Source: a virus
Taxonomy: Duplodnaviria; Heunggongvirae; Uroviricota; Caudoviricetes
DNA: 64,000 nt
Direction: 5' to 3' (one strand)
IMG/VR virus record: IMGVR_UViG_3300021431_000080
Span: 68,460-132,459 of that record
In this document: positions 3,312 to 49,938 of the stretch, in pieces
Position numbering within the stretch: the stretch's first letter is position 1
How the letters are laid out: each line of letters opens with the position of its first letter
The notes under the pieces: model-generated
What the model saw: the letters and a program-made list of their open reading frames with translations, nothing else
What the model was told of the DNA's origin: nothing
The model's database searches: none
Position numbers and translations under genes: made by a program

Positions 3312-3656
3312 CTATGTACTTACGAATAGTATCAGGATTTGCTTCTCCGATTGAACAAACAAAATATCCATCACTCCAAAACGTATGTTCTTTCCAAAAT
3401 TTTTTAGAAAACTATAATAATGTAACCATAGGTGATGTGCACTTTCTTGTTTCAGTTTTCTTACAATGGATGTAACAGAAATATTTGGTGGGTATGCTAT
3501 TAGTAAATGCATGTGGTCTTTGTCTGTCTCCATTATATCAATTGAGAAGTCCGATGATTCTGAAATCTTTTGAAACAATTGTTTGACTACTATATCAAGA
3601 CCATATTGTAGAAGTTGTTTTCTGTACTTACAAACAAAAATTAAGTGACATTTCAA
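3312..3656 (-). CDS. tnpA: IS200-like TnpA (Y1 HUH transposase), possibly C-terminally truncated
   Basis: 114-aa ORF with MKCHLIFVCKYRKQLL and HUH motif DHMHLL. The C-terminal Tyr region looks shortened. Divergent to tnpB, as in IS605. Confidence 0.55.
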   Translation of the reverse strand: MKCHLIFVCKYRKQLLQYGLDIVVKQLFQKISESSDFSIDIMETDKDHMHLLIAYPPNISVTSIVRKLKQESAHHLWLHYYSFLKNFGKNIRFGVMDILFVQSEKQILILFVST

Positions 3657-3780
3657 ATAATATTTGTGTTTTTTTAGATGTGTAATTGCTCATACGTAAA
3701 ATTATTTTAGAAATTGCTTTACAAATATAAAATAATTTTGTAAATTTGCAAATAAATAATTATAGAAATTTGATTATATA

Positions 3781-4977
3781 GTGAAGACAATATACAGGAC
3801 ATATAAGTTTAGAATGTATCCGAATGCAGAGCAACAAGAATTGTTGAGCAAGTATTTTGGGTGTGTTCGTTTTGTATATAATCATTTTCTAAATGAACGA
3901 AAGGAACAGTATAGAGAAACACAGAAATCCGACAATTATTATGAGCAGGCGAAGAAGTTGACTCTTCTAAAAAAACAAGAAGAATATTCTTGGTTGAAGG
4001 AAATCAACAGTCAGACACTTCAACACAGTTTAAGACATCTTGAATCAGCATACATCAATTTCTTTAGGGGAAATGCGAAATTTCCAAGATTCAAGTCAAA
4101 GAAAGATAGAAATTCCTTTGTTGTTCCACAGTTCTGTTCTATTGACTGTAATTCAATATCGTTACCTAAATTCAAATCTAACATAAAAATCAAGAAGCAT
4201 TGTGAAGTTAATGGTAATGTTCACTCTATGACAATATCAAAAGATTGTGATGGAAAGTACTATGTAGCAATTCTAACGGAACAACAATATAAACCTATAG
4301 AAAAAACTAACAAATCTGTTGGGATAGATTTAGGACTGAAAGATTTTGTCATAACATCTGATGGAAAGGTATATAAGAATCATAGATACACAAAGAAATA
4401 TGAAAGAAAATTAAGTAAGGCACAAAAGCATCTTTCTCGTAAACACAAAGACAGCAATTCTTATGAAAACCAAAGAAGAAAAGTTGTCAAGATTCACAAG
4501 AAGATTGTAAATTCAAGAAATGATATGTTGCATAAGGTTTCAACGGAACTTGTCAAAAATTACGACGTAATTTGTTGTGAGAACCTTAATGTGAAAGGAA
4601 TGATTAAGAACCATAAACTTGCAAAGCATATTGCAGATGTAAGTCGGGGAACTTTCATAAACTTTCTTGAATACAAATGCAATAGAGAAGATAAGACTTT
4701 GGTGAAAATAAACAGATACTTTCCAAGTTCACAGACTTGTAGTGAATGTGGATATATCAACCAAAACACTAAAGACTTGAGTGTACGGGAATGGACTTGT
4801 CCTAATTGTGGTAAACGCCACAACAGGGACTTGAATGCTTCAATCAATATCCTCAGAGAAGGATTGAAATCTCTATCGGCAGGGACTGTCGATTACACAG
4901 GTGGAGATGATGTAAGACTTGCTTGCAAGCAATTGTCTATGAAGCCTGAAGCCCACAAATCTTTAGTTTGTGGGTAG
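3781..4977 (+). CDS. tnpB: TnpB (IS200/IS605 OrfB, RuvC-like RNA-guided nuclease family)
   Basis: 398-aa ORF with an OrfB_IS605 N-terminus, a C-terminal zinc finger CSECG...CPNCG and a RuvC-III motif DLNASINIL. TAG stop at 4975. Confidence 0.85.
   Translation: MKTIYRTYKFRMYPNAEQQELLSKYFGCVRFVYNHFLNERKEQYRETQKSDNYYEQAKKLTLLKKQEEYSWLKEINSQTLQHSLRHLESAYINFFRGNAKFPRFKSKKDRNSFVVPQFCSIDCNSISLPKFKSNIKIKKHCEVNGNVHSMTISKDCDGKYYVAILTEQQYKPIEKTNKSVGIDLGLKDFVITSDGKVYKNHRYTKKYERKLSKAQKHLSRKHKDSNSYENQRRKVVKIHKKIVNSRNDMLHKVSTELVKNYDVICCENLNVKGMIKNHKLAKHIADVSRGTFINFLEYKCNREDKTLVKINRYFPSSQTCSECGYINQNTKDLSVREWTCPNCGKRHNRDLNASINILREGLKSLSAGTVDYTGGDDVRLACKQLSMKPEAHKSLVCG
4952..4974. mobile_element. IS200/IS605 right-end subterminal hairpin, overlapping the tnpB 3' end
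   Basis: Palindrome CCCACAAA-TCTTTAG-TTTGTGGG with the same loop as the left-end hairpin. Defines the IS boundaries at about 3260-4980. Confidence 0.55.
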
Positions 4978-28074: not shown

Positions 28075-28148
28075 GGGGTAGTGCCTTCAATGGTACAGGA
28101 CCGCCCTTGCACGGCGGCATTTTCTCGGTTCGAATCCGAGCTACTCCA
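28075..28148 (+). tRNA. tRNA-Ala(TGC)
   Basis: G3-U70 pair, anticodon stem CCGCC/GGCGG with loop CTTGCAC, T-arm CTCGGTTCGAATCCGAG. Confidence 0.65.
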
Positions 28149-28172
28149 CTTATAATCAGCAAGTTATATAAT

Positions 28173-28260
28173 GGCACGTTAGACTAGTGGTCCAGGTCGC
28201 TACGCTTTCAACGTAGTTGGGGTATAAAAGCCCCTCATGAGTTCGAATCTCATACGTGCT
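28173..28260 (+). tRNA. Type II tRNA (long extra arm) with anticodon loop CTTTCAA (nominal TTC)
   Basis: 88 nt: acceptor GGCACGT/ACGTGCT, anticodon stem CTACG/CGTAG, 19-nt extra arm GGGG-TATAAAAG-CCCC, T-arm ATGAGTTCGAATCTCAT. A Glu-type anticodon on a Leu/Ser/Sec-type body is anomalous. Confidence 0.4.
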
Positions 28261-28265
28261 ACAAC

Positions 28266-28338
28266 GCCCTGTTCGAATAGTCGGTAAGTTCACCAGACCC
28301 TCAATCTGGAAACGCCAGTTCGAGTCTGGCACAGGGTA
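28266..28338 (+). tRNA. tRNA-Glu(CTC)-like, C at position 33
   Basis: Anticodon stem CCAGA/TCTGG with loop CCCTCAA; T-arm GCCAGTTCGAGTCTGGC. Confidence 0.5.
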
Positions 28339-28353
28339 CAATAACACACTGCG

Positions 28354-28429
28354 GGTGGGTGAAACGGATATTGCAAATCATTCAAGACTCATAATCTTGA
28401 GATACACAGTTCGACTCTGTGACCAGCTA
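28354..28429 (+). tRNA. tRNA-Met/Ile2(CAT)-like with an atypical D-arm
   Basis: Anticodon stem CAAGA/TCTTG with loop CTCATAA; T-arm CACAGTTCGACTCTGTG; the D-arm and acceptor are poorly paired. Confidence 0.4.
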
Positions 28430-28634
28430 CTAATTGAATATCAATAATTTGGAATTTGACCGAGGGAGTGAACTCAGCCGTGGTAACACGGTGGCACTGC
28501 GGAATGTGCCTTAATGGAGGGTTGCGAAAAGGAAACGCCTGTCCGCGTTCAGGCAGTTAAGAGAAACGGCGTTCGCGTGAAAAACGAGTACGGATGGCCC
28601 TATCGGTCAACTTGCGCAAGAATTCCAAATTTTT

Positions 28635-30997: not shown

Positions 30998-33019
30998 ATG
31001 AACGTATTCATTATCGCGGGTGTCATCGCACTCGTTGTGATTCTGACGGTCGTCGGAATCCTGACACGCTACAAGAAGTGTCGCTCGGACGAAGTCCTTA
31101 TCGTCTACGGTAAGACGAAAGGCAAAACCTCTGCAAAATGCTACCACGGCGGTGCCGCATTTGTGTGGCCAGTGATCCAAGGTCACGCTGTCATGAGCAT
31201 GAGACCTATGCAGATCCAGTGCAACCTCGCCGGGGCTCTTTCCTCGCAGAAAATCGAGGTCAACGTCCCAACCGTTGTCACTGTGGCAATCTCAACCGAT
31301 CCAGAGGTCATGCAGAACGCTGCTGTACGTCTTCTCGGTCTGGACGAGAAAGAGAAGATTGAGCAAATTAAGGATGTCGTCTGGGGTCAGATGCGTCTTG
31401 TCATCGCAGAGATGGAAGTCGAACAGCTGATTTCCGACCGCGAACGCTTCCTCGGCTCATGTAAGACCAACATCACCACTGAGCTGAAGAAATTCGGTCT
31501 CGATCTGATCAACATCAACATTTCCGACATTTCGGACAATGCTGAGTACATCGCCAACCTCGGTAAGAAAGCCGCTGCAGAGGCGAAGTACCGCGCCCTT
31601 GCCGACATCGAGGAGAAGACCAAGGACGGTGAGGTCGGAATCGCCACCCAGAAGAAGGAGAAGGCTGTGAGTCTCGCCCAGATCAGCAAAGAGCAGGAGA
31701 CCGAAGTCGCCAAGAACGACCGCGATCAACAGACCACTGTCGCCGAGACACAGAAGGATCGCGACATCAAGCTCCGAGACACGGAGAAGGAGAAGAAGGT
31801 CGGTATCGCCGAACGCGAGAAGGAGGAGGTCGTCAGAACCCGTGAGATTATAAAGGATCGTGAGGTCGAGACCGCCAACCTCGACAAAGACGAGGCTACT
31901 CAGGTCGCGAACATCGAGAAGGAGAAATCCGTCGAGGTCGCAACCGCAGAGTCGCTGAAGGTCCAGAAAGTCGCCGAGCAGAAGAAGCTTAAGGATGTCG
32001 CTGTTGCCCAGCAACAGGCTATGACCGAGTCGGAGACTGCAGCAGCAAACGCCAAGCGCGACGCTGTCATCGCCGAGAAGCAAGCCGAGTCGCGTACTGC
32101 ACAGCAGAAAGCAACTCAGGACTCCGAGGCAAGCGTTGTCGAGTTCGAGCAGAGCGCAGAAGCCCGTAAGGAGACCGCTACCCAGCAGGCTGAAGCCAAG
32201 AAGCGGGAAGCCTTCCAGGAGAAGGAGAGCAAGGTCGCCGAGGCTGAAGCTAACACCCAGAAGCGCAAGGCTGTCGCAAAGAAGGATGCGACCCTGACTG
32301 AGAACACCGCCAACATCGAGGTCGCCAAGTCAGACGCAAAGCTCGGTGTTGAGCGTGCAGAGGCTGACAAGACCATCGGCGAGAGCCGTGCCAACGCCGA
32401 CAAAGCCGTCGGTATCGCCAAGGCAAAAGCTGAGGCTGAGGTTGCAAAGGCTCAAGCCGAAGCCGAAAAAGAAAAGCAGACTGCCGACATCATGGTCGGA
32501 ACAGAAATCGAGGCTGCCCGTAAGAAAGCAGAAGCCGAAGGTTTCAAGAACCAGACGATCGTCACCGCAGAAGGTGAAGCTGCTGCAATCCGCATGAAAG
32601 CTGAGGCTGAGGCTGAAGCAATCAAGATCAAGTCTCTTGCCGAAGCTGAAGGTCGACTGAAGATTGCCGAGGCTATCCAAGCCGAGAACGCAGCCAAGAC
32701 AGCGGAACTCCAGGCTCTGCTCCAGAAGGGCATGGCTGGCGAGCAGGTCGTCCAGATCGTCCTTAAGGAGGAACTGGAGAAGATTGCCCGCGCCGATGCA
32801 GAGAAGTTCGAGCACCTGCAGCTCGGCAACATCACGGTGGTTGGTGGACCAGAAGCTGCTCCGAGTTTCCTCGGAAAGGTTGTAGAGACAGTGAGCAAGG
32901 TAAGCACACTCAAGGACAACATTCCTGGAGTAGGCGGACTGCTTGGACTGCTCGGATCTTTCGACAAGAAGCACAACGGCGATCAACCCGCACAGGAAGC
33001 CGTCGAAGCCAACAAGTAA
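30998..33019 (+). CDS. SPFH/band-7 flotillin-like protein (YqiK/FloA-type)
   Basis: 673 aa with an N-terminal TM helix, an SPFH domain and a very long Ala/Glu/Lys coiled-coil. Very GC-rich (dense spurious antisense ORFs). Confidence 0.8.
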   Translation: MNVFIIAGVIALVVILTVVGILTRYKKCRSDEVLIVYGKTKGKTSAKCYHGGAAFVWPVIQGHAVMSMRPMQIQCNLAGALSSQKIEVNVPTVVTVAISTDPEVMQNAAVRLLGLDEKEKIEQIKDVVWGQMRLVIAEMEVEQLISDRERFLGSCKTNITTELKKFGLDLININISDISDNAEYIANLGKKAAAEAKYRALADIEEKTKDGEVGIATQKKEKAVSLAQISKEQETEVAKNDRDQQTTVAETQKDRDIKLRDTEKEKKVGIAEREKEEVVRTREIIKDREVETANLDKDEATQVANIEKEKSVEVATAESLKVQKVAEQKKLKDVAVAQQQAMTESETAAANAKRDAVIAEKQAESRTAQQKATQDSEASVVEFEQSAEARKETATQQAEAKKREAFQEKESKVAEAEANTQKRKAVAKKDATLTENTANIEVAKSDAKLGVERAEADKTIGESRANADKAVGIAKAKAEAEVAKAQAEAEKEKQTADIMVGTEIEAARKKAEAEGFKNQTIVTAEGEAAAIRMKAEAEAEAIKIKSLAEAEGRLKIAEAIQAENAAKTAELQALLQKGMAGEQVVQIVLKEELEKIARADAEKFEHLQLGNITVVGGPEAAPSFLGKVVETVSKVSTLKDNIPGVGGLLGLLGSFDKKHNGDQPAQEAVEANK

Positions 33020-33686: not shown

Positions 33687-34411
33687 CAAAAGGTTTTCAA
33701 TTTTGAAAAGAGTTCTTTGAAAGAATAAAACCCAATGCTGCAAAGGTGTGCGAATCATCGGACTGCCTGCCAGAAGAACCTCTGGAGAACTGCAGACGCT
33801 CACACTTAATGTCTAAAATACCTCAAGACCTTTTATTGGTAATCTTGGCTCAAGGTAACAGCGCGAGAGAATAAGTCATTGCAGATGGTCACACGGATGA
33901 TGTCAGGCAGACATTGGGAAATGTTAATCTTGTCTTCGACGGATCAGTTAAACGGTTAAGCACAGGGGACGTAATTGCAGGGGAGACCCCTGCTTCCTGT
34001 AAAGGTTGGATGCCAAACGGTGATGACGGGTTCGAATCCCGTCTTCGTTGTTGATGAGATTGCAATATAAGGATGGAAGGAAAATATGCGGTTTGAAATT
34101 GTTCGAATGTCTCGTTCGGAAGTCAGTGTGTCCCACTTCTGGCACGGAGAAAGGCTTCCGATGAAAGAGAGAAGGAGGAATGGCAGTCGGACTCTTGCAA
34201 GAGTTTCATATCGTATTGACAGATTGTTTTGATCGAAACTGGTCGCCGCTACAAGATTGTCGCGGAGCAGGATAAGGAGACCTGCACATTTGTCTGAATT
34301 CCGTCTTTTATTTTGGAAGGTGAACTGTAGTGGTATTACAGCGCAGTCTTGAAAACTGTTGGGACATTTAGTTGTCTGGGGATCGTGCCCTCCGCCTTCC
34401 GCTTTCTTAAT

Positions 34412-35895: not shown

Positions 35896-36247
35896 ATGGG
35901 GGTGTTCTGGATTTTGATGCGGGATTTTGAGTTGGCGCAAGCAAGCCGTGATCTGTACAAACTCACGTAAAACAGATGTGCGAAAGATAGTTGGCAACAA
36001 CACCTACAGACTCGCTGCCTGAAAACCGCCGAAAGGCGTGAAGGCTTAATCCTGTCCACAAGAGGTGAATAGGACGAGCGTTCCACAGAGAGTTTCTCTG
36101 TTTGTTTCTCTGATTTTGGAGCGTCATCGAAAACAGTGGTTTGAAGTATAATCTTTTAGTTGCCTGAAGTTCAGGATAAGCTTGTAGAAAACGTCCGCTG
36201 GATGCCGTAGACCGCAGTTCGACTCTGCGCACCTCCACAATAAATAT

Positions 36248-36329
36248 GCAGGAATGGCGAAACTGGGATACGCGCCACACTCAAAATGTGGTGCCGAAAG
36301 GCGTTGAGGGTTCGAACCCCTCTTCCTGC
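36248..36329 (+). tRNA. tRNA-Leu(CAA), type II
   Basis: Anticodon stem CCACA/TGTGG with loop CTCAAAA; extra arm GCCGAAAGGC; T-arm GAGGGTTCGAACCCCTC. Confidence 0.65.
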
Positions 36330-36333
36330 ACAA

Positions 36334-36414
36334 ACGCCGAAGTGGTGGAACAGGCAGACACGCCATCCTCAGACGGTGGTTCTTCGGAGTGCGGGTTCAA
36401 ATCCCGCCTTCGGC
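36334..36414 (+). tRNA. tRNA-Leu(CAG), type II
   Basis: Anticodon stem CCATC/GGTGG with loop CTCAGAC; T-arm GCGGGTTCAAATCCCGC. Confidence 0.65.
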
Positions 36415-40453: not shown

Positions 40454-41095
40454 ATGAAGTTTATTGTAGTAATGGTTTGGAAAGATAGAAAAGATGAATT
40501 AGAAAAATTAATTAAAGATAATGTTTCTTATGAGGAAATAGGGCGGATGTATGGATGCTCTGGTACAAATGTAAAACATGCTTGTAGAAGATTATGTATA
40601 GAATTAAAAAGAAGAAGGAAGGTAAATGAAAACGAAAACTTTGCTACAAAAGTAGCGAAAACAGGAATTTGTTTGAATTGTAACAAAGAATATGTTTTAT
40701 ATAAAAGTCATAATGGGAAATTTTGTTCGCATGAGTGTTGTACAGAATACAATAAGAACAAATATATATCAGAGTGGCTATCAGGAGAAAGATCAGGTTG
40801 TTCAAAGCGTTATAAATTAACGAAAAGTGTGAGGGAATATCTTTTTCAGCAGTCAAATTATACTTGTTCATCTTGTGGATTCAATACACCTAATCCATAT
40901 ACAGGAAACACAATACTGCAAATACATCATATAGATGGAGATGCAGCAAATACATCTATCGATAATTTAAAAGTTTTATGTCCAAACTGTCACGGATTAA
41001 CTGAAAATTTTGGATCAAGAAATAAAAACAAATCTGCAAGGCAATATAGAAGAGAAGAGTATAGAAAACAAGAAGATGATATCTTAAATAAATAA
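40454..41095 (+). CDS. HNH homing endonuclease
   Basis: 213 aa with HHIDGDAANTSIDNLKVLCPNCH plus CxxC pairs; AT-rich. Confidence 0.75.
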   Translation: MKFIVVMVWKDRKDELEKLIKDNVSYEEIGRMYGCSGTNVKHACRRLCIELKRRRKVNENENFATKVAKTGICLNCNKEYVLYKSHNGKFCSHECCTEYNKNKYISEWLSGERSGCSKRYKLTKSVREYLFQQSNYTCSSCGFNTPNPYTGNTILQIHHIDGDAANTSIDNLKVLCPNCHGLTENFGSRNKNKSARQYRREEYRKQEDDILNK

Positions 41096-41114
41096 TTCAT
41101 TCCCAGATAGTTTC

Positions 41115-41186
41115 GGGTGGTTAGTTCAATGGATAGAACTTCAGATTACGGCTCTGACGATAGGGATTCGACTTCTCTACCACCCA
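41115..41186 (+). tRNA. tRNA-Arg(ACG)
   Basis: GGGTGGT-TA-GTTC-AATGGATA-GAAC, anticodon stem TCAGA/TCTGA with loop TTACGGC, acceptor ACCACCC. Confidence 0.65.
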
Positions 41187-41243
41187 CAAAAAATAAAAAA
41201 GTTTGAAAAAATTTCACTGAAAACTTTTTTCTTTCGAAAATAA

Positions 41244-41263
41244 TCAGTATCTTTGCAGTGAAA
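41244..41263 (+). promoter_or_regulatory. Conserved promoter motif copy
   Basis: ATCAGTATCTTTGCAGTGAA, upstream of a tRNA-like gene and the ORF-free region that precedes the Ro60 gene. Confidence 0.5.
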
Positions 41264-41319
41264 TTAAACGACAAAGAGAGTTCTTTGAAAAATAAAATCT
41301 GGATGCCAGGATCAAGCGT

Positions 41320-41393
41320 TTCCTCGTAGCTCATTTTGGATAGAGCGCAAACCTCTTAAGTTTGAAGTAATTGGTTCAAATCCAATCGACAGT
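41320..41393 (+). tRNA. tRNA-Lys(CTT)-like with an unpaired acceptor (possible pseudo-tRNA)
   Basis: Good D-arm (GCTC-ATTTTGGATA-GAGC), anticodon arm (CAAAC-CTCTTAA-GTTTG) and T-arm (ATTGGTTCAAATCCAAT). The flanking 7-mers (TTCCTCG / CGACAGT) do not pair. Confidence 0.35.
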
Positions 41394-41559
41394 CAGTAGA
41401 CTGATAATTCGCTTGCCAGTATTCACCAGATTTTTTAGAAATAAACTTGGCATTGCCAGCATTTCGGATACATCGACAATCAATTTGACCGTTATGGTCG
41501 CACCAAAAAATTCGATATTGTAACAAAAAGTATGTTTAACCCTTTTTACCGAATGCGTT

Positions 41560-41800
41560 TTTACTTGCCGAGCACTTTACACCAGATGCCAGCTGAGAGT
41601 TTCATCGATTCGTCGGTTCGAATCCGACTTCACCCGCTCAAGGGAGAATGGCGAAATGGTATACGCGAAAGACTGCAGATCTTTTATCACAATGTTTCAC
41701 TCTCCGCAGTATTCACTGGTGTTATCTTAAAGCTCGGTTTCCAATGGAGATCGAGCTTTTTTATTTTAAAACATATATAATTATTAACTATAAACTGTAA
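41560..41800 (+). ncRNA. Candidate Y-RNA-like (YrlA-type) non-coding RNA upstream of the Ro60 gene
   Basis: ORF-free segment with a tRNA T-arm mimic (GTCGGTTCGAATCCGAC at 41616-41632) and GNRA loops (GCGAAATGG, CGCGAAAGA). Position matches the known rsr/Y-RNA arrangement. Confidence 0.3.
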
Positions 41801-41804
41801 AGTT

Positions 41805-43448
41805 ATGCCACAGATGAAGAAGAGAAACGGGCAGCTCATGAATGCCCTCGGCTCGATGGCTCCAAAGGAGCGAATCGAAGCAGCAAACAACGTTCCTGAT
41901 TATGACGATGTGAACATTCAGGGTCACAAGGCTTATGCTCTGCCTGACGAGCTCAAGCTCCTTTCTATGCTCAACACATTGAAACTGGAGTCGCAGTTCT
42001 ATCGCAACGAGGAGTCCACAATGAAGGAACTTCGTGAGCTCATCGAGCGCGTTGCAGTGAAGGATCCTTATTTCGCTGCACAGTGTGTGTGCTGGTCCAG
42101 AAACCTCGGTGAGAAGATGCGTTCGGTCAGCCACCTCGCCGCAGCTCTCATGGCTCCGTTCGCCTCCGGTCAGGAGTGGGGAAAGCGTTTCTACGGTCTG
42201 TTCGACAAGAAGTCGAAGACTGGCGGATGTGTCTTCCGTACCGACGATATGCGTGAGATCAAGGATATCCACAACACCCTCACAGGCGGCACCCCTCTGT
42301 CTTCCGCCATGAAGAAGGGATTCGCCAACGCGATCGAGAAGATGGACAACTACCAGCTTGCCAAGTACCGCGATGTTATCATCGATATTTCGAACATCGC
42401 CCACCCGGATCCGAGCAAGTCTTCGGCTGAGGTCGACATCGAGATCAACGGCAAGACTGTCCACATGAAGACCATCGACGCTATCATGAAGGGATACACG
42501 GTGTCTGCAGACACATGGGAGGTCGCCAACTCTGAAGCAGGACAGCTCGTCGCTGAGGCTGTCAAGGAAGGTAAGCTCGATGAGGAAGAGGCGAAGACTG
42601 TTCTCGCCGAGGCGAAGAACGACAACTGGGAAGGTCTGCTTGAGGACGGCCGCCTCGGTATGCTCGCCGCACTCCGCAACATCCGCAACATGATGAAGAA
42701 CCCCCGTGAGAGTGTCATCAACAAGCTCTGTGAGCTCGTGTCGGACGGAAAGAAGATCCGCAACTCTGGTGTCATGCCTTACCACATTGACATCGCCTAC
42801 GAGACAATCGTAAACGAGTTCTCTGGATCCCAGTACGCCTCCAAGGTGATGAACGCCCTCCTGCAGGGATATGAGGCTTCGGTGCCTAACCTCGCCGTCG
42901 CTCTCCCTGGCAAGACTCTTGTCGTAGTCGACTGTTCTGGATCGATGTCCACCAGAATGAGAAATGGTCAGGGATACATGACATCGAGCTGTATCCAGAA
43001 GGCTTCCCTCGTGGCTGCGACAATCGCCAAGGGCGCAAACGCCGATGTCATCTGCTTCGGTAGCAACGCTGAGTGGTACACTGGAAGCCGCGACAAGAGT
43101 GTGTTCGACATTTCAAGGGATCTCAACCACGCAAACATGGGCGGAACCTATTTCGGCAGCGCGTTCGAGCTCGCCCGCCGCAGCAAAAAGGCATACGACC
43201 GAATAATCGTCCTGTCCGACAACGAGTGCAACTACGGTCTGACGAGGGAGCACTACAAGAGCTACATCCACGATGTGTGTGATCCTTACATCTACAGCAT
43301 CGACCTCGCTTCCTACGGTACAACCCAGTTCAAGGGCGAGAAGGTGATCAACTACTTCGGATACGGCTACGCGCTGTTCGACGACATCGCCAGCCGCGAG
43401 TTCAACCCGAGTAGAGTCATCAACAAGGTTAAATCCTATGTGATTTAG
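41805..43448 (+). CDS. Ro60-like TROVE-domain protein with a C-terminal vWA domain
   Basis: 547 aa. N-terminal alpha-helical TROVE-like region. C-terminal vWA with the MIDAS motif VVVDCSGSM. GC-rich. TAG stop. Confidence 0.55.
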   Translation: MPQMKKRNGQLMNALGSMAPKERIEAANNVPDYDDVNIQGHKAYALPDELKLLSMLNTLKLESQFYRNEESTMKELRELIERVAVKDPYFAAQCVCWSRNLGEKMRSVSHLAAALMAPFASGQEWGKRFYGLFDKKSKTGGCVFRTDDMREIKDIHNTLTGGTPLSSAMKKGFANAIEKMDNYQLAKYRDVIIDISNIAHPDPSKSSAEVDIEINGKTVHMKTIDAIMKGYTVSADTWEVANSEAGQLVAEAVKEGKLDEEEAKTVLAEAKNDNWEGLLEDGRLGMLAALRNIRNMMKNPRESVINKLCELVSDGKKIRNSGVMPYHIDIAYETIVNEFSGSQYASKVMNALLQGYEASVPNLAVALPGKTLVVVDCSGSMSTRMRNGQGYMTSSCIQKASLVAATIAKGANADVICFGSNAEWYTGSRDKSVFDISRDLNHANMGGTYFGSAFELARRSKKAYDRIIVLSDNECNYGLTREHYKSYIHDVCDPYIYSIDLASYGTTQFKGEKVINYFGYGYALFDDIASREFNPSRVINKVKSYVI

Positions 43449-43461
43449 GGTTTGTTTTTGG

Positions 43462-43498
43462 AAGGCGGTTGAAAAAATTTTAACCGCCTTCTTTTTTC
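43462..43498 (+). terminator. Rho-independent terminator
   Basis: AAGGCGGTT-GAAAAAATTT-TAACCGCCTT followed by a T-run. Confidence 0.7.
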
Positions 43499-43511
43499 TT
43501 TGGAAAAAAAT

Positions 43512-43531
43512 AAGTATCTTTGCATTGTAAT
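43512..43531 (+). promoter_or_regulatory. Conserved promoter motif variant
   Basis: AAGTATCTTTGCATTGTAAT; the ATG at 43547 follows. Confidence 0.45.
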
Positions 43532-43546
43532 CGAAACGAAACGGAA

Positions 43547-44131
43547 ATGATAACTAAACTCTCAGGAGAAGGAATCTGGTTCACAAGTGATACCCATTTT
43601 AATCACAAGAACATCCTGCAGTTCACCAAGCGCCCGTGGAAGACGATAGAGGAGCACGACGAGGCTCTGATAAAGAACTGGAACGATGTTGTTGGAGTGG
43701 ACGACACTGTGTTCCATCTCGGAGACTTCTGCTTCGGAAATTCACAGAAGGTGGTTGAAGTCCGCGAGAAATTGAACGGGAACATAATACTGATCAGGGG
43801 AAACCACGACGACAAGAACCTGCAGAGAAGCCTCTGGACATTGTTCGATGAGGTTTTGTATCAAGCGAGAATTCAGATTGACGGAAGAACTGTGTACCTG
43901 AACCATTTTCCGTTCCTCTGTTTCGCTCATGGGAACCCCTCGATATATAGGGACTGGGCTGTGAACCTGTTTGGACACGTCCACTCGGGACCGGGATCGA
44001 AATCTGAGGATGTGTCGAGACTTGACAACTTGTTCCCTACTCAGTATGATGTCGGAGTTGACAATAACGATTACAAACCAATTTCGTGGAAAGAGGTGAT
44101 GAAGAAGATAAATAAGCAGATAGAGAATTGA
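43547..44131 (+). CDS. Calcineurin-like metallophosphoesterase
   Basis: GDFCFG, LIRGNHDD and GHVHSG motifs (in order GDxxxG, GNHD, GHxH). Confidence 0.7.
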   Translation: MITKLSGEGIWFTSDTHFNHKNILQFTKRPWKTIEEHDEALIKNWNDVVGVDDTVFHLGDFCFGNSQKVVEVREKLNGNIILIRGNHDDKNLQRSLWTLFDEVLYQARIQIDGRTVYLNHFPFLCFAHGNPSIYRDWAVNLFGHVHSGPGSKSEDVSRLDNLFPTQYDVGVDNNDYKPISWKEVMKKINKQIEN

Positions 44132-44146
44132 AAACAATAAACATAT

Positions 44147-44220
44147 GGGACGTATAGCTCAGTTGGCAGAGCGTCGGATTGTGGTTCCGATGGTCGTGGG
44201 TTCGAATCCCTCTACGCCCC
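44147..44220 (+). tRNA. tRNA-His(GTG) with G-1
   Basis: The extra 5' G pairs with discriminator C73. Anticodon stem TCGGA/TCCGA with loop TTGTGGT. Confidence 0.65.
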
Positions 44221-44229
44221 CAAGAAATT

Positions 44230-44302
44230 GCCCCCATAGTACAACGGAATAGTGCGCAGCTCTCCTAAAGCCGAAATACAGGTTCGATTCCTGTTGGGGG
44301 TA
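44230..44302 (+). tRNA. tRNA-Arg(CCT)
   Basis: Anticodon stem CAGCT/AGCCG with loop CTCCTAA; T-arm ACAGGTTCGATTCCTGT. Confidence 0.55.
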
Positions 44303-44507
44303 CTACGAAACATACTGTTCAAGTAAAAAGTTTGCAAAATAAACATCATTGCCATGAAAAGGTTTAGGATTGTATTTGAAATGGAAGTTGAGAGCGGTGA
44401 TTATTTAGGAGCAAACGGAGAAATGTATATAAGAAATGACATCGAGGAACGTTTTTGTGGTGAGAATGTTGATATTGAAGTGATAGAAGAAAATGAATGA
44501 TGCGAAT

Positions 44508-44664
44508 CGGTAATATGGAGGTGTGGTGAAATTGGTAGACACGATGGATTTATATGAGAGTAAACTCTATTGACAAATCGTAACTGCATAGAGTGGGTTA
44601 AATTGGTTCGATTCCAATATGCAGTTCAAGCTCCATTGGGAAATCCGTGTGGGTTCGAATCCCA
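44508..44664 (+). tRNA. Type II (Leu-like body) tRNA with anticodon TAT, interrupted by a ~76-nt insert at 37/38
   Basis: 5' part GGAGGTG-TG-GTG-AAATTGGTAGA-CAC-G-ATGGA-TTTATA at 44508-44545. 3' part C-TCCAT-TGGGAAATCCG-GTGGGTTCGAATCCCAC-CACCTCT-A at 44622-44664. The insert carries the minihelix ACTGCAT-AGAGTGGGTTAAA-TTGGTTCGATTCCAAT-ATGCAGT. Confidence 0.45.
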
Positions 44665-44707
44665 CCACCTCTACTCAGAATCAGAGTTCTATTAATCAAA
44701 AAATAAA

Positions 44708-45001
44708 ATGATATTCTATCACGGAACTACAGAAGAAGCATGGGAACAGATTAAGAAAGACGGCGAATTGTTCGGATATGATCGCATTCTAAGTAACGAC
44801 AGAAAAACTGTACTTCAGGAATTCAGAAAGACTTATTTGGCTACTGATATGGAGGCTGCAGAATGCTATGGAGACGTTATCCTCGAAGTCGAATATGATC
44901 CTTATAAAAAAGGAGCACGATGCAACAGTTTCAATGAAGACTGTTGGCAAATCAGAGTATACGAACCGATTCCTATTTCCAATATAAAACGCATAAAATG
45001 A
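44708..45001 (+). CDS. Hypothetical protein
   Basis: 97-aa ORF. Confidence 0.4.
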   Translation: MIFYHGTTEEAWEQIKKDGELFGYDRILSNDRKTVLQEFRKTYLATDMEAAECYGDVILEVEYDPYKKGARCNSFNEDCWQIRVYEPIPISNIKRIK

Positions 45002-45645: not shown

Positions 45646-47043
45646 GTGGATACACATTTGATTACATACAAGTTCAGATATGAAGCAGACGACGAAGCGA
45701 AAGGCTTCATCATGAAGTGCATGAAACAATACACTTCCATGCTTCACTGTGCTTATAACCGTGTGACTGAAGGGATGAATCCAAAGCAAGTCAGGGATTT
45801 TTTGAAAACTCAGATTAACAACGTTGAGTTGATGGATTCCGCGATGGCAGCTTGTGCTCAGCAGCAGGCTTCAGGGATAAACGAACGGATAAAGAGTTCT
45901 GACAACCCTGACAGGAAGATGATCTTCGGAGGAAAAAATAACTATATCAGACGTTGCAAAGGTCTGATTTCAAAAGAGGAGTACAGAGAGAAGAGAATCT
46001 CTCCGTTGATGTCAATCGGCGAAGCCAACCAGAAGGCAAACCGCAAGTTCAAGATCAATCAGGATCTTCATACAATCACTTTCCAGATAAACCGCTACAA
46101 CCACCATACTCTGACTCTGAAAGGAGTCTACGGAAAGCGCGAGAAGGTTCTTGCCAAACTGTACGAACTTCAGGAAAAGAAAGAGATACCGATCACTTAT
46201 CAGCTTGACAGGGAACATGTTTATTTGAGTTTCGATGAATCGTTAGTTGAGAAATATACCCGTAAGAGATTCGTCGAGAACCGCGTGATGGCTATCGACA
46301 TGAATCCTAATTATATAGGATGGTCTGTTGTCGACTGGAAAGGTGAATCAGAATTTAATATTGTAAAGTCAGGAGTTTTCTCCATAAAGAAGATCAACGA
46401 CATGTCTGAAGTCCTTTCCAAGTCACATACGGATTCGGAGGATCCGAGGAAAATCTATATAAGCAACAAAAGGACACACGAGACTTACCAGATTTCAAAG
46501 AAGCTGATTGACATATGCCTACACTACAAGTGTGAGTCTTTCTGTATAGAGGACTTGGACATGAAATCAAAGGATTCTGAGAAAGGGAGGGGATATAACA
46601 GGCTTGTGAACAGTAACTGGTGTAGGAATAAGCTCGAACTTAACCTTCAGAAGAGATGCAACATATTCGACATCAGGTTTTTCAAGGTCAAGCCAGATTT
46701 CACTTCGTTTGTCGGAAACTTCTTATTCAGGTCGTTGAATCTTCCCGACATGGTGCTTGCAAGCATCGAGATAGGAAGACGTGGTTATGAATTTAACTTA
46801 CAGTATATAAAGAAATCAAAAGAGATAAAACGTAATATCGTGTTCCCGGATTTGGGTGCATACAGAAACTTCTATGTCAAGTCGTTGGAAGAATTTGGCA
46901 TAGAGGATGGCACTGGTCTAAGGGACATATATTACGGTCTAAAAAAGTCTAAAACCAGATATAGGCTTTCTCTGGAACAATGCGGGACGGAGTTTTCAAG
47001 GTGTTTTTCAAAGACTAGTCTAATATTAAAAACAATTAATTGA
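45646..47043 (+). CDS. TnpB-like RuvC-fold protein lacking the zinc-finger cysteines
   Basis: 465 aa. RuvC-I-like AIDMNPNYIGW, RuvC-II CIEDLDM, RuvC-III-like DMVLASIEIGRRG. The segment between II and III (VKPDFTSFVGNF) aligns to the TnpB ZnF position but has no Cys. Confidence 0.5.
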   Translation: MDTHLITYKFRYEADDEAKGFIMKCMKQYTSMLHCAYNRVTEGMNPKQVRDFLKTQINNVELMDSAMAACAQQQASGINERIKSSDNPDRKMIFGGKNNYIRRCKGLISKEEYREKRISPLMSIGEANQKANRKFKINQDLHTITFQINRYNHHTLTLKGVYGKREKVLAKLYELQEKKEIPITYQLDREHVYLSFDESLVEKYTRKRFVENRVMAIDMNPNYIGWSVVDWKGESEFNIVKSGVFSIKKINDMSEVLSKSHTDSEDPRKIYISNKRTHETYQISKKLIDICLHYKCESFCIEDLDMKSKDSEKGRGYNRLVNSNWCRNKLELNLQKRCNIFDIRFFKVKPDFTSFVGNFLFRSLNLPDMVLASIEIGRRGYEFNLQYIKKSKEIKRNIVFPDLGAYRNFYVKSLEEFGIEDGTGLRDIYYGLKKSKTRYRLSLEQCGTEFSRCFSKTSLILKTIN

Positions 47044-48368: not shown

Positions 48369-49048
48369 AGTACGACACCAACTGTGGTTACGATGATGAG
48401 ATGACTCTATATGTTATGGAGAACAACTCAATCGACTACAGGATGATCGTTGGCAAGGACGGTCACAATCCTTCGGTGTCTGGCACAGACTGGTACTGCA
48501 ATGCCATCGCGTCTGTCATATCATTGAAAAGTCCAGATCTTGAGGAATGTTCGCTGGACGAACTTCCAGAGGCTGTCAAGATATCCTTCGGTTTGTCCAA
48601 GCCTGTTGTGGATCTTTCATTGCTGCACATGTTCAAGTGTGAGAAATGCTGTTTTGCCTGCAAGAATATGTTCAATCTTATGGGCAAAACATCAAAATGC
48701 AGCTGCGAGTCTCCAGACAGTAACGAGCATTTTTGTTTCTACTGCTGCAACAAGTTCGATCCTGCAGGTGATGGTGTCGTCAACAAGAGGATTGCCGAAT
48801 ATGCCAGCAGCATCTTTCCTGAATCCGTAGAGATAGATGGACACACGTATTCGTTTGTGTGTGAACGATATGATAAGCTTGGCATGTGGGGATATTCATA
48901 TTCAGATGAAATTCATCATTCCGCCTGTGTCACTGACGGGATATACCAATACTACCTTGCATCAGTGTTCCCGAAACAGGAAGATGCCGCCATCGATCTC
49001 GCAGGCAAACTATCAAGATACCTAAACCATAAAAACCAGACAATATGA
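48338..49048 (+). CDS. Cys-rich hypothetical protein
   Basis: 236 aa with many CxxC pairs. Confidence 0.4.
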   Translation: MSKQFFRAKIKYDTNCGYDDEMTLYVMENNSIDYRMIVGKDGHNPSVSGTDWYCNAIASVISLKSPDLEECSLDELPEAVKISFGLSKPVVDLSLLHMFKCEKCCFACKNMFNLMGKTSKCSCESPDSNEHFCFYCCNKFDPAGDGVVNKRIAEYASSIFPESVEIDGHTYSFVCERYDKLGMWGYSYSDEIHHSACVTDGIYQYYLASVFPKQEDAAIDLAGKLSRYLNHKNQTI

Positions 49049-49938
49049 TCTACAACGAAAAAAGATATTTCAACATAAGCATATTAAACCTGCACTTCTG
49101 TCTGAAGCAGCATTTCGTGTATTTCGACAAAGAGAAACAGATTCCTGTTTACAGGAAGGTTTTCAAAATATATTATGAGAAGGACAACGGGAACGACTGG
49201 ATTCATAAAGAATGGCTCAACTTTTACACAGGGTGGGAGAAACCGTGTCTTGTCTACGACACTTTCTCGTATGAAGACGACAACAGGCACCATATGAGAA
49301 TGTCATTGGGATGGGGATTGCTTTACCTTTATTTCCCATGGAAGAACCACGGTACTGACTGGAACGATTTCAACGATCCAGAACCTAAGTACGGATATTA
49401 CTTCTATGGAGAGGGAAAGTTCTTCGACCAGATTGTATTTGAGTTCGGAAAGAAATCAAAGACAGTCGATATGCCGTGGGCTTTGGATTTCTACAAGAAA
49501 GGTGTGATGTTGAAAAACAGTGTTTGGTGGACATGTAATGAAAAAGATATCAAGAAGGCAAAAAAACAAGGCATACAGACTTGGAAAGATCTAAGATTCA
49601 ATCTCGATGATGATGACGAGAGGATTCTGAAAAAGAAATATCCGTTCACTTATGTCACGAAAAATGGAGAAATTCAGAACACAACTGCTACATGCCATGT
49701 AGAAATTCGTGAATGGAGACCGAAATGGTTTATGTGGACGAAGGCTTTTCGTTTCATCAGAAGGGATTTGGAAATAAATTTTAATGACGAAATGGGAAAC
49801 AGAAGGGGTTCTTGGAAAGGCGGTGTTCTTGGAGTGAGCGCACCTATAACAAGAGATGAGATATACGCGGAAGATTTCGAGACTCCTTTAAGAAGATATG
49901 AGGAGAAAGTCAACAGAATCCACGATTATGACAGATGA
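49045..49938 (+). CDS. Hypothetical Trp-rich protein
   Basis: 297-aa ORF. Confidence 0.45.
   Translation: MIYNEKRYFNISILNLHFCLKQHFVYFDKEKQIPVYRKVFKIYYEKDNGNDWIHKEWLNFYTGWEKPCLVYDTFSYEDDNRHHMRMSLGWGLLYLYFPWKNHGTDWNDFNDPEPKYGYYFYGEGKFFDQIVFEFGKKSKTVDMPWALDFYKKGVMLKNSVWWTCNEKDIKKAKKQGIQTWKDLRFNLDDDDERILKKKYPFTYVTKNGEIQNTTATCHVEIREWRPKWFMWTKAFRFIRRDLEINFNDEMGNRRGSWKGGVLGVSAPITRDEIYAEDFETPLRRYEEKVNRIHDYDR

Follow-up and report, generated by a model that had tools for sequence, protein, structure and literature searches.

The 64,000 nt stretch of viral DNA examined here, referred to below as the window (positions 68,460–132,459 of IMG/VR record IMGVR_UViG_3300021431_000080, from a very large phage), contains a gene, ro60, that encodes a Ro60 protein and is preceded on the same strand by a tandem array of structured RNAs. 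We consider it likely that this locus is a phage Ro60 ribonucleoprotein module with Y-like RNAs. An earlier note on this DNA had proposed a Ro60/Rsr protein with a Y-RNA-like, tRNA-mimicking element upstream; that observation is real, and our analysis supports its interpretation as essentially right. Phages that encode Ro60 next to Y-like RNAs are already known, so the locus is not a new category of finding. Its RNAs nevertheless form a variant family of their own, which is widespread and unannotated and has an unusual tRNA topology.

The Ro60 gene and the RNAs upstream of it

The open reading frame (ORF) at 41805–43448 encodes a Ro60. The earlier note had named the lack of a TROVE match as grounds for refutation, but Pfam TROVE is matched at 25.1 bits, above its cut-off of 23, with only residues 268–335 aligned; vWA_Ro60 scores 35.7 bits against a curated cut-off of 27.7, and VWA_2 is also above its curated cut-off. 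PHROG 850 ('RNA-binding protein') was matched across the full ORF (E 1.1e-32). A sequence search of the PDB returned the Ro60 of Thermus phage phiLo (9l5y/9kop, E 3.5e-12) and vertebrate Ro60 (9nen/1yvp, ~1e-5). When an AlphaFold2 model made with 28 homologues as input (pLDDT 76.7) was compared with the PDB using Foldseek, the 13 best matches were all full-length Ro60 proteins (TM score 0.5–0.66 over 525–585 columns), including those of phiLo, human and Xenopus and the Deinococcus Rsr, and isolated vWA domains ranked after them. The TROVE plus vWA architecture that the earlier note had recognized, with its MIDAS motif DCSGSM (residues 376–381), is thus that of Ro60/Rsr, and D376, S378, S380, T448 and D472 are invariant among the 28 homologues. 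In Ro60 proteins, the Y RNA lies on the outer surface of the ring and the ends of misfolded RNAs in the central hole. Homologues are numerous, with 1728 in the protein database at E<=1e-10 and 356 relatives confirmed in IMG/VR, the latter gathered with the homologue alignment as query, single-protein peptide patterns being too specific. Rumen and gut metagenomes are the source of the related contigs, the longest of which is 476 kb.

Upstream of ro60, positions 41295–41722 hold three tandem structured RNAs in the order A, C, B, separated by spacers of 12 and 5 nt. They lie on the + strand, as ro60 does, 83–510 nt upstream of its start codon (Table 1), and the design that they repeat was first seen when the 800 nt upstream of the ro60 genes of homologues were compared. 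The earlier note had described a single candidate element in a ~400 nt ORF-free stretch from 41400. That position falls inside the first of the three units and mechanical ORFs of up to 82 aa occur in the stretch, but its conservation pattern is that of RNA. A small-protein reading of the 82 aa ORF at 41532–41780, and of a 68 aa gene called in the related locus L002 (L numbers denote the loci compared), was rejected because the substitutions compensate in RNA helices and because the length of one loop, that of the acceptor-like hairpin of unit B, varies from 2 to 21 nt.

Unit B is a scaffold stem around a permuted tRNA-like cloverleaf. Its order of T arm, capped acceptor hairpin and D arm is that of the bacterial Y RNA YrlA, and its ends exit at the variable-arm position. 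The core is joined to the scaffold by a 3 bp helix, GAU/AUC, which alternates with GUU/AAC among homologues, and the minimum free energy (MFE) fold reproduces all of the helices. The Rfam tRNA model finds only the acceptor-5'/D/anticodon part of it (41642–41703, 32.8 bits), and misses the T arm. The T-arm mimic reported earlier, GTCGGTTCGAATCCGAC, is present, whereas the supposed GNRA loops are GAAA strings in the D loop and the D/anticodon junction of this fold and not hairpin loops.

The evidence for this structure is covariation. Because a larger alignment, A3, was fitted to the covariance model, R1, we put first the figures for the structure-blind MAFFT alignment A2 (21 sequences) from which R1 was built. 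In A2, 85.9% of cells are paired, compared with 67.1% when columns are shuffled and 38–51% when partners are slid, and the covariation score is 0.561, against 0.198 for shuffled alignments (0/500 reach it) and 0.11–0.19 for slid ones. In A3, which holds 53 unit B homologues (the best R1 matches), 93.1% are paired against 59.3% after shuffling, and double changes occur in 35/37 pairs; pairing is 100% in the T, D and anticodon stems and 97% in the capped acceptor. The T-loop sequence GGUUCGAnUCC, the U8-like U, the D-loop GG and the U33-like U are each conserved in at least 90% of the 53. The 'anticodon' triplet is free to vary, with 27 different loops in the 53 sequences, and the loop of the capped acceptor is 2–21 nt long.

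These figures also bear on the suggestion that the T-arm mimic and the partial tRNA matches are decayed, functionless tandem tRNA genes. The region is inside a dense tRNA island, R1 matches real tandem tRNAs weakly (e.g. at 36213–36292 and 23173–23253, over model positions 33–111 only), and Chen et al. (PMC4201824) warned of exactly this artefact, dimeric-tRNA arrangements being known false positives in YrlA searches. However, the capped acceptor and both closing stems covary in 53 homologues that accompany Ro60 proteins of identities down to ~50%, unit B scores 132.7 bits over the full model against at most 35 bits, for partial matches, on tandem tRNAs, and its position relative to ro60 is fixed. 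As the 53 sequences are distinct, with many compensatory changes, and are not recent copies, the covariation effectively refutes decay, and we attach almost no probability to it.

Unit A carries the same scaffold around a cargo in normal tRNA order. Its scaffold reads AAAUCUGG / AUGCCAGG.. / AAGCG .. UUUCCUCG ... CGCUU / GCCAGUAUUCA / CCAGAUU, and the cargo (41324–41389) consists of D, anticodon (CUU) and T arms with an acceptor of only 3 bp, then a small hairpin. Scaffold and arms both form in the MFE fold. The cargo matches the Rfam tRNA model at 45.6 bits over model positions 5–66 only, and is the second of two tRNA or tRNA-like genes that had been placed before the stretch; the first, tRNA-Arg(ACG), is real. 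ARAGORN called neither unit A nor unit B, and both depart from tRNAs, A in its 3 bp acceptor and B in its capped acceptor and unconserved anticodon. Homologues of unit A were found in 39 places with nhmmer, and a TGCCAG..TYNCNTCG pattern is confined to units A and B.

Unit C has an interior that is not tRNA-like and is the least well supported of the three. It reads ACUUGGCA / UUGCCAG / CAUUUCGG / AUACAUCGA ... CCGAAUG / CGUUUUUACU / UGCCGAG, and homologues were found only in the three closest relatives (L002, L004 and L005), in which the lower stem is kept and changes in the upper stem compensate one another (GUUCUCAG/CUGAGAAC; UCCUUUCGGA/UCCGAAGGA). The scaffold matches of units A and C were obtained in an R1 search with the speed filters off.

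Table 1. Features of the ro60 locus and of two further scaffold units in the window
Feature	Position	Strand	Evidence
Unit E, un-permuted: open 7 bp acceptor stem, T arm, anticodon-like hairpin, internal arm	22642–22783	+	
Unit D, scaffold around ARAGORN tRNA-Pro(AGG) 26259–26331	26231–26364	+	R1 28.1 bits, E 0.003, full model, filters off; MFE fold
tRNA-Arg(ACG), genuine, no scaffold around it	41115–41187	+	ARAGORN; Rfam tRNA 57.7 bits, full model
Promoter-like -7 element TATCTTTGC, Bacteroidetes TAnnTTTG type	41248–41256	+	Motif scan; repeat families D8/D10
Unit A, Y-like scaffold around normal-order tRNA-like cargo	41295–41432	+	R1 21.9 bits, E 0.004, full model
Unit C, Y-like scaffold, interior not tRNA-like	41445–41572	+	R1 15.2 bits, E 0.076, full model; MFE fold
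Unit B, Y-like scaffold with permuted tRNA-like cloverleaf	41578–41722	+	R1 132.7 bits, E 2e-22
Unit B lower stem	41579–41585 / 41716–41722		
Unit B 5' loop AUGCCAG	41586–41592		
Unit B upper stem	41593–41599 / 41700–41706		
Unit B motif UUUCAUCG	41600–41607		
Unit B T arm, GTCGGTTCGAATCCGAC	41612–41628		
Unit B capped 7 bp acceptor-like hairpin, 6 nt loop	41629–41648		
Unit B single U at U8 place	41649		
Unit B D arm	41651–41666		
Unit B anticodon-like hairpin, 5 bp / 7 nt, loop CUGCAGA	41668–41684		
Unit B 3' loop CAGUAUUCA	41707–41715		
Terminator-like hairpin and U run, between unit B and ro60	41729–41769	+	Scan: 14 pairs, 6 G-C, tail TTTATTTTAA
ro60, 547 aa TROVE (HEAT-repeat ring) and vWA/MIDAS protein, TAG stop	41805–43448	+	Pfam, PHROG, fold
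Strong terminator after ro60	43460–43502	+	Scan: 15 pairs; next TATCTTTGC element 43515–43523

The scaffold and its linkage to ro60

In the shared scaffold, the 5' and 3' ends pair in a 7 bp lower stem that is followed by an asymmetric internal loop, an upper stem of ~7 bp and then UUNCNUCG. In the window, the internal loop has AUGCCAG or UUGCCAG on its 5' side and (G)UAUUCA or UUUUUACU on its 3' side, and the UUNCNUCG motif takes the forms UUUCCUCG, AUACAUCG and UUUCAUCG. R1 also gave many weaker full-length matches at which the scaffold alone fits, and 140 distinct units share a lower stem, UAGUCA, an upper stem, (G)UUACUUCG, an interior, the 3' strand of the upper stem, NAA(U/C)(A/U)UUCU and the 3' strand of the lower stem. 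The two stems are 90.7% paired in these units, compared with 54.2% after shuffling and 36–49% with slid partners, and 14/14 pairs covary. The G-U pairs and the strict same-strand orientation point to selection on the RNA. The interiors, of 4–106 nt, are of four kinds, namely bare hairpins of 4–13 nt, normal-order tRNA-like bodies of ~56–70 nt, permuted bodies of 69–79 nt and other sequences of up to 106 nt. As many interiors are no longer than 4–13 nt or do not resemble tRNA, it is the scaffold itself that is conserved, and because its most conserved bases are unpaired (UAGUCA, UUACUUCG and UUCU) it is typical of a specific protein site and not of an RNase III duplex.

Minihelix elements elsewhere in the island had been put forward as further Ro60 ligands, and this stands in part, for two elements that share the scaffold motifs. 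Unit D, 15 kb upstream of ro60, wraps an element that ARAGORN calls a tRNA and reads AAACGA / UUGCCAG / GCAAGGAGG / UGCAUCGA ... CUCCUUCC / GAUUUUCU / UCGUUU; similar wrapped 'tRNAs' are found in L288–L290 and in phage csAssE-Sib. In unit E, the internal arm is the scaffold inside out (CUCUCCG-AUUUAUUCU-hairpin-UUGCCAUU-CGGCAGAG-UUACUUCGAGG), running from the 3' strand of the upper stem through AUUUAUUCU, a short closed lower stem, UUGCCAUU and the 5' strand of the upper stem to UUACUUCGAGG. Its fold is more stable than shuffles (MFE z-score -3.74; 0/200 shuffles as stable), and an alignment of eight sequences (A6) shows compensatory changes in 20/24 predicted pairs. An element resembling unit E directly follows the two scaffold units of Bacteroides phage crAss001. 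Scaffold and tRNA body are therefore joined in at least three topologies.

Four full-length R1 scaffold matches in the window island (units A–D) were upheld by inspection, against 36 tRNA and transfer-messenger RNA (tmRNA) calls. Five others (36213–36292, 36304–36380, 23173–23253, 23504–23578 and 28121–28218) match the model only in part and were rejected because each spans two real neighbouring genes, the T arm coming from one tRNA or tmRNA and the D arm from the next. Two matches of 15–17 bits were also not accepted, 34260–34396, in which the scaffold motifs are not visible, and 28273–28436. At 21690–22130 there are orphan T-arm/acceptor pieces resembling minihelices (e.g. 22053–22128 and 21794–21815) for which ARAGORN called no tRNA; the 22053–22128 piece has UAGUCGGUUAC directly before its T arm and is no more stable than its shuffles (z -0.22). 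A tRNA at 44517–44673 (Rfam 46 bits) has a 77 nt insertion in its anticodon loop, itself with a T-arm-like hairpin (AUUGGUUCGAUUCCAAU).

The scaffold RNAs are linked to ro60. In the loci searched, all R1 matches are on the ro60 strand, and scaffold RNAs are present near ro60, on its strand, in ~100 of the 160 loci fetched. For a count of positions, related loci were covered only ±1.5 kb around ro60; here, 30 of the 53 strong B-type units are upstream of the Ro60 ORF, 19 of them ending 29–126 nt before its start, and 23 are 101–1145 nt downstream. In 136 kb with long flanks (the 64 kb window and L288–L291 with 10 kb flanks), 5/5 strong B-type units are no more than ~120 nt from an end of the Ro60 ORF, and weaker scaffold units are dispersed across the surrounding tRNA islands. 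As a control, we used 100 viral loci (844 kb) from among the matches listed for TAGTCAN{8,12}TTACTTCG, a pattern with 14 specified bases whose matches are mostly due to chance. R1 matches occurred in only two of them, L202 and L212, and both encode Ro60 beside the scaffolds.

Known phages carry the same arrangement. The scaffold flanks the TROVE genes of crAss001 and csAssE-Sib. In csAssE-Sib (L292, OR575929.1), the scaffold encloses the annotated tRNA-Tyr and tRNA-Lys at 2450–2870, upstream of the gene for a 'Ro sixty-related protein', and one further unit has the YrlA-like form T/acceptor-stem/D. In crAss001 (L296, MH675552.1), 3622–3943 holds two minimal scaffold hairpins and then the tRNA-like element with the internal inside-out scaffold.

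Relation to YrlA, other Y RNAs and permuted tRNAs

In 254 bacteria and 22 phages, YrlA and rsr are neighbours with the same orientation, and the tRNA-like domain of YrlA runs T arm, closed acceptor hairpin, D arm (Chen et al., PMC4201824); its Ro60 stem continues the anticodon stem and the anticodon loop is absent (Wang et al., 10.1101/312249). The RNAs described here resemble YrlA (RF02553; found in Salmonella Typhimurium, M. smegmatis and mycobacteriophages) in their position beside ro60/rsr on the same strand and in paired 5' and 3' ends forming the stem that holds the Ro60 site, which in the scaffold is putative. Unit B also shares the arm order and the conserved elbow nucleotides (PMC4201824; 10.1101/312249). 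Unlike YrlA, unit B keeps a 5 bp/7 nt anticodon hairpin, 100% paired in the 53 sequences, and its Ro60-type stem leaves between this hairpin and the T arm, at the variable-arm position, via the 3 bp helix. The scaffold has UAGUCA (AUGCCAG in the window) ... UUNCNUCG ... UUCU in place of GNCGAAN0-1G, the YrlA Ro-binding motif. In csAssE-Sib and Arthrobacter phage Atuin, sub-threshold Rfam YrlA and R1 matches coincide on the same RNAs, and this is a bridge between the present RNAs and the YrlA family. As a control, the Rfam YrlA model gave matches of 28–32 bits beside Ro60 in csAssE-Sib and the scanned actinophages, and as these are below the gathering score of 69, Y-like RNAs in actinophages may escape Rfam annotation. 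Gordonia phage Rabbitrun (L293), Atuin (L294) and Streptomyces phage GiJojo (L297) each have a Ro-like gene in or beside a tRNA cluster.

A stem of paired ends broken by a conserved internal loop, with a variable module beyond, is the general Y RNA design. The phiLo Ro60 (9KOP, 9L5Y), also from a phage, is the closest solved homologue by sequence and fold, although protein identity is only ~20–24%. A 2025 study (PMC12135203) found that it binds a pair of Y-like RNAs whose genes lie directly upstream and that it associates in a complex with the host PNPase. The likeness extends to several tandem Y-like RNAs directly upstream of the gene and to their stem, bulge, stem design. The phiLo RNAs differ in having been chosen by a CGAA motif in a large bulge, and the available part of that study describes no tRNA-like domain in them; RNA binding and the PNPase complex were shown there by experiment (PMC12135203), whereas for the present module binding is inferred. 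At the phiLo locus (L295), R1 found nothing at E<=0.1. In Deinococcus radiodurans, the Y RNA Yrn1 of RYPER (Ro60-Y RNA-PNPase) is similar in concept, in that its non-Ro module tethers an effector, and it has a T-arm-like hairpin (PMC4201824). Its arms are differently oriented, and it keeps both strands of the metazoan-like Ro60 helix. A survey of jumbo phages noted TROVE proteins with a tRNA-like partner in some phages (PMC7824862). In the literature searched, we found no paper linking Lak-type phages to Ro60 and none describing the present scaffold.

Several observations weigh against a Ro60 module. That Ro60 binds the units is suggested by gene linkage and by analogy. The Rfam models Y_RNA and YrlA, which the earlier note had proposed to scan with, and also that of the Deinococcus Y RNA, have no match at E<=10 in 41000–44800, where the upstream RNAs gave only tRNA-model fragments of units A and B, and YrlA has none at E<=0.1 in the relatives L002, L092 and L006. 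At gathering scores, Y_RNA, YrlA and the Deinococcus Y RNA have no match in the whole window. A regular-expression scan of 41290–41730 found no GNCGAAN0-1G; CGAA occurs there only within stems, the T loop and the D arm, and the related string in the scaffold is UUUCAUCGA / UUACUUCG. The thermodynamic z-scores of units A–D (-1.4 to -1.8) are not significant, and we therefore relied on covariation, for which the alignments behind the largest counts were fitted to the model. Some scaffold units of the window are as far as 15–19 kb from ro60, and many units enclose tRNAs of ordinary appearance, so the handle could serve tRNA biogenesis rather than Ro60.

This last possibility is the main rival. 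The scaffold would be a pre-tRNA handle unrelated to Ro60, a processing or stabilizing stem for an RNase or phage endonuclease in tRNA maturation, and Ro60 merely one more gene of an island devoted to tRNA and RNA metabolism. Units that wrap ARAGORN tRNAs with 7 bp acceptors (L288 9084–9221, Gln; L290 9519–9647, Trp; window 26231–26364), the wrapped tRNA-Tyr and tRNA-Lys of csAssE-Sib, the many kilobases between some island units and ro60, and the missing canonical Ro-binding motif would all suit it. It sits poorly with interiors of just 4–13 nt or unlike tRNA, with top conservation in unpaired loop bases, and with an island in which most tRNAs are unwrapped. Moreover, Ro60 is encoded at every scaffold-bearing locus examined, including loci found independently of Ro60, and the permuted units abut the Ro60 ORF. 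On balance, we regard a handle unconnected to Ro60 as unlikely.

Unit B also resembles the permuted tRNA genes of Cyanidioschyzon merolae and two-piece permuted tmRNA. These too have the 3' half of the tRNA ahead of the 5' half, an acceptor stem that a loop initially closes, and ends that are brought together in a helix in another part of the molecule (10.1101/312249). To yield canonical tRNAs, permuted tRNA precursors pass through a circular intermediate with the help of a splicing endonuclease and a ligase; neither enzyme was seen among the scanned window neighbours, and no bulge-helix-bulge motif was seen. Unit B and its relatives could nonetheless be permuted or split tRNA genes giving rise to working, possibly Ro60-bound, tRNAs if RNase P opened the capped acceptor and the 3' end were trimmed and given CCA, the scaffold remaining as a very long variable arm. 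The cloverleaf is complete, with a well-paired acceptor, canonical T loop, D-loop GG, U8-like U and a 7 nt anticodon loop with U33-like and purine-37-like bases. NCCA begins 8/47 distinct acceptor loops, against ~0.7 expected, and several further loops begin NCC. Un-permuted relatives with an open acceptor and an internal scaffold arm exist (window 22642–22783; crAss001 3800–3943), and there is a precedent in M. smegmatis YrlA, which has a 7 bp acceptor stem and is cut by RNase P and given CCA (PMC4201824). However, the anticodon differs even between otherwise near-identical orthologues, the acceptor loop of the window unit, GCUCAA, lacks CCA and its stem has an A-A mismatch, the loop varies widely in length, and the orthologous unit B of L004 and L005 has an interior without any tRNA-like body. 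Maturation into working tRNAs is thus quite improbable.

Genomic setting and proposed working of the module

The top database relatives of the family-B DNA polymerase of the window are from Prevotella Lak megaphages, at merely 37–38% identity, and the source phage, of a kind found in gut and rumen metagenomes, is a distant relative of them. The gene for an Acb3 homologue (an inhibitor of CBASS; Pfam PF25187, E 3e-32) at 49045–49938 adjoins the polymerase gene. The tRNA island occupies ~21–45 kb of the window, with 35 tRNA calls and one tmRNA (ARAGORN, Rfam) and with HNH and GIY-YIG homing endonuclease genes scattered between the tRNAs. The tmRNA, at 35898–36240 (Rfam 101.2 bits), has the tag peptide GNNTYRLAA, and a tmRNA is near ro60 in L002 and L288 too. 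A suppressor-type tRNA with a CUA anticodon (ARAGORN label 'Pyl') is at 26055–26126 and the stop codon of ro60 (43446–43448) is TAG, which may indicate TAG recoding in the style of Lak phages. Readthrough of that stop codon would add just 8 codons before a TGA, and homologues finish at the same residue.

The earlier note had placed a promoter motif ahead of the stretch, and a promoter-like element is present there. TATCTTTGC occurs 17 times in the window against 0.53 expected, 15/17 on the + strand, and probably serves as a promoter throughout the source phage; we take it to fit the Bacteroidetes -7 consensus TAnnTTTG. Other copies are at 43515, 20333 and 30382, often inside a longer conserved block, TTTG..N..TATCTTTGCA. 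A TTTG..TATCTTTGCAGTG block like that at the 41248 element also precedes the RNA arrays of L002, L004, L005 and L006, and this element is likely to be the start signal for the array and ro60. Counterparts of the hairpin before ro60, with T runs, are found in L002, L004 and L005. The simplest reading would be one transcription unit made up of promoter, A, C, B, a leaky terminator, ro60 and a terminator.

Among the neighbours, a metallophosphoesterase gene (43520–44131) follows ro60, but a functional tie was rejected, as this adjacency is kept only in the closest relatives L002 and L004, and not in L005, L006 or L288–L291. A 465 aa ORF 2 kb downstream of ro60 (45646–47043) has no Pfam or PHROG match. 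Genes for Band_7/SPFH-domain proteins are near ro60 in the window (30998–33019, with internal 132 nt repeats at 31647–32244), in L291 (9979–11166) and in crAss001 (gp91; L296 5798–5996). A HEARO RNA (Rfam RF02033, 133 bits) is directly downstream of the Ro60 homologue on the 289 kb contig L006 (4779–5010).

For a Ro60 module with Y-like RNAs, we propose that the transcript would begin at the Bacteroidetes-type promoter near 41248, cross A, C and B, and end in part at the hairpin and U run at 41729–41769, otherwise continuing into ro60. The precursor would be cut into single RNAs, as for YrlA/YrlB of M. smegmatis. As in Y RNAs, Ro60 would bind the scaffold with the outer surface of its ring, and the variable interior would be an effector module. 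Unit B would then give Ro60 a tRNA mimic that recruits or occupies tRNA-binding proteins, candidates being modification enzymes, RNase P, nucleases such as PNPase and host anticodon nucleases. Where other scaffold units of the island wrap ordinary-looking tRNA-like bodies, the handle would probably link some of the phage tRNAs to Ro60, so that they are protected, checked for quality or matured in a regulated way.

A bolder extension is that the scaffold is a portable Ro60 handle grafted on tRNA bodies in three ways, around a normal tRNA, around a permuted tRNA, or as an internal arm of a body with an open acceptor, so that part of the tRNA repertoire would work as Ro60-bound particles. One form that such particles might take is a split or long-armed tRNA still able to decode once its capped acceptor has been opened by RNase P; another is a Ro60-shielded decoy whose variable anticodon loop absorbs host anticodon nucleases. 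We think this rather unlikely; if true, it would be a new coupling of RNA surveillance to translation in infection.

Conservation of Ro60 and Y RNAs extends from bacteria to humans, and Ro60 is a major autoantigen. Gut and rumen megaphages carry the present family widely, and it extends to crAss-like phages; it has one scaffold fused to tRNA bodies in several ways, including elements now annotated as ordinary tRNAs. Some 'tRNA genes' of phage islands therefore belong to larger RNAs and call for caution. R1 detects Y-like RNAs that Rfam misses, and the naturally occurring variants of the family could help to identify the molecules recruited by the tRNA mimic.

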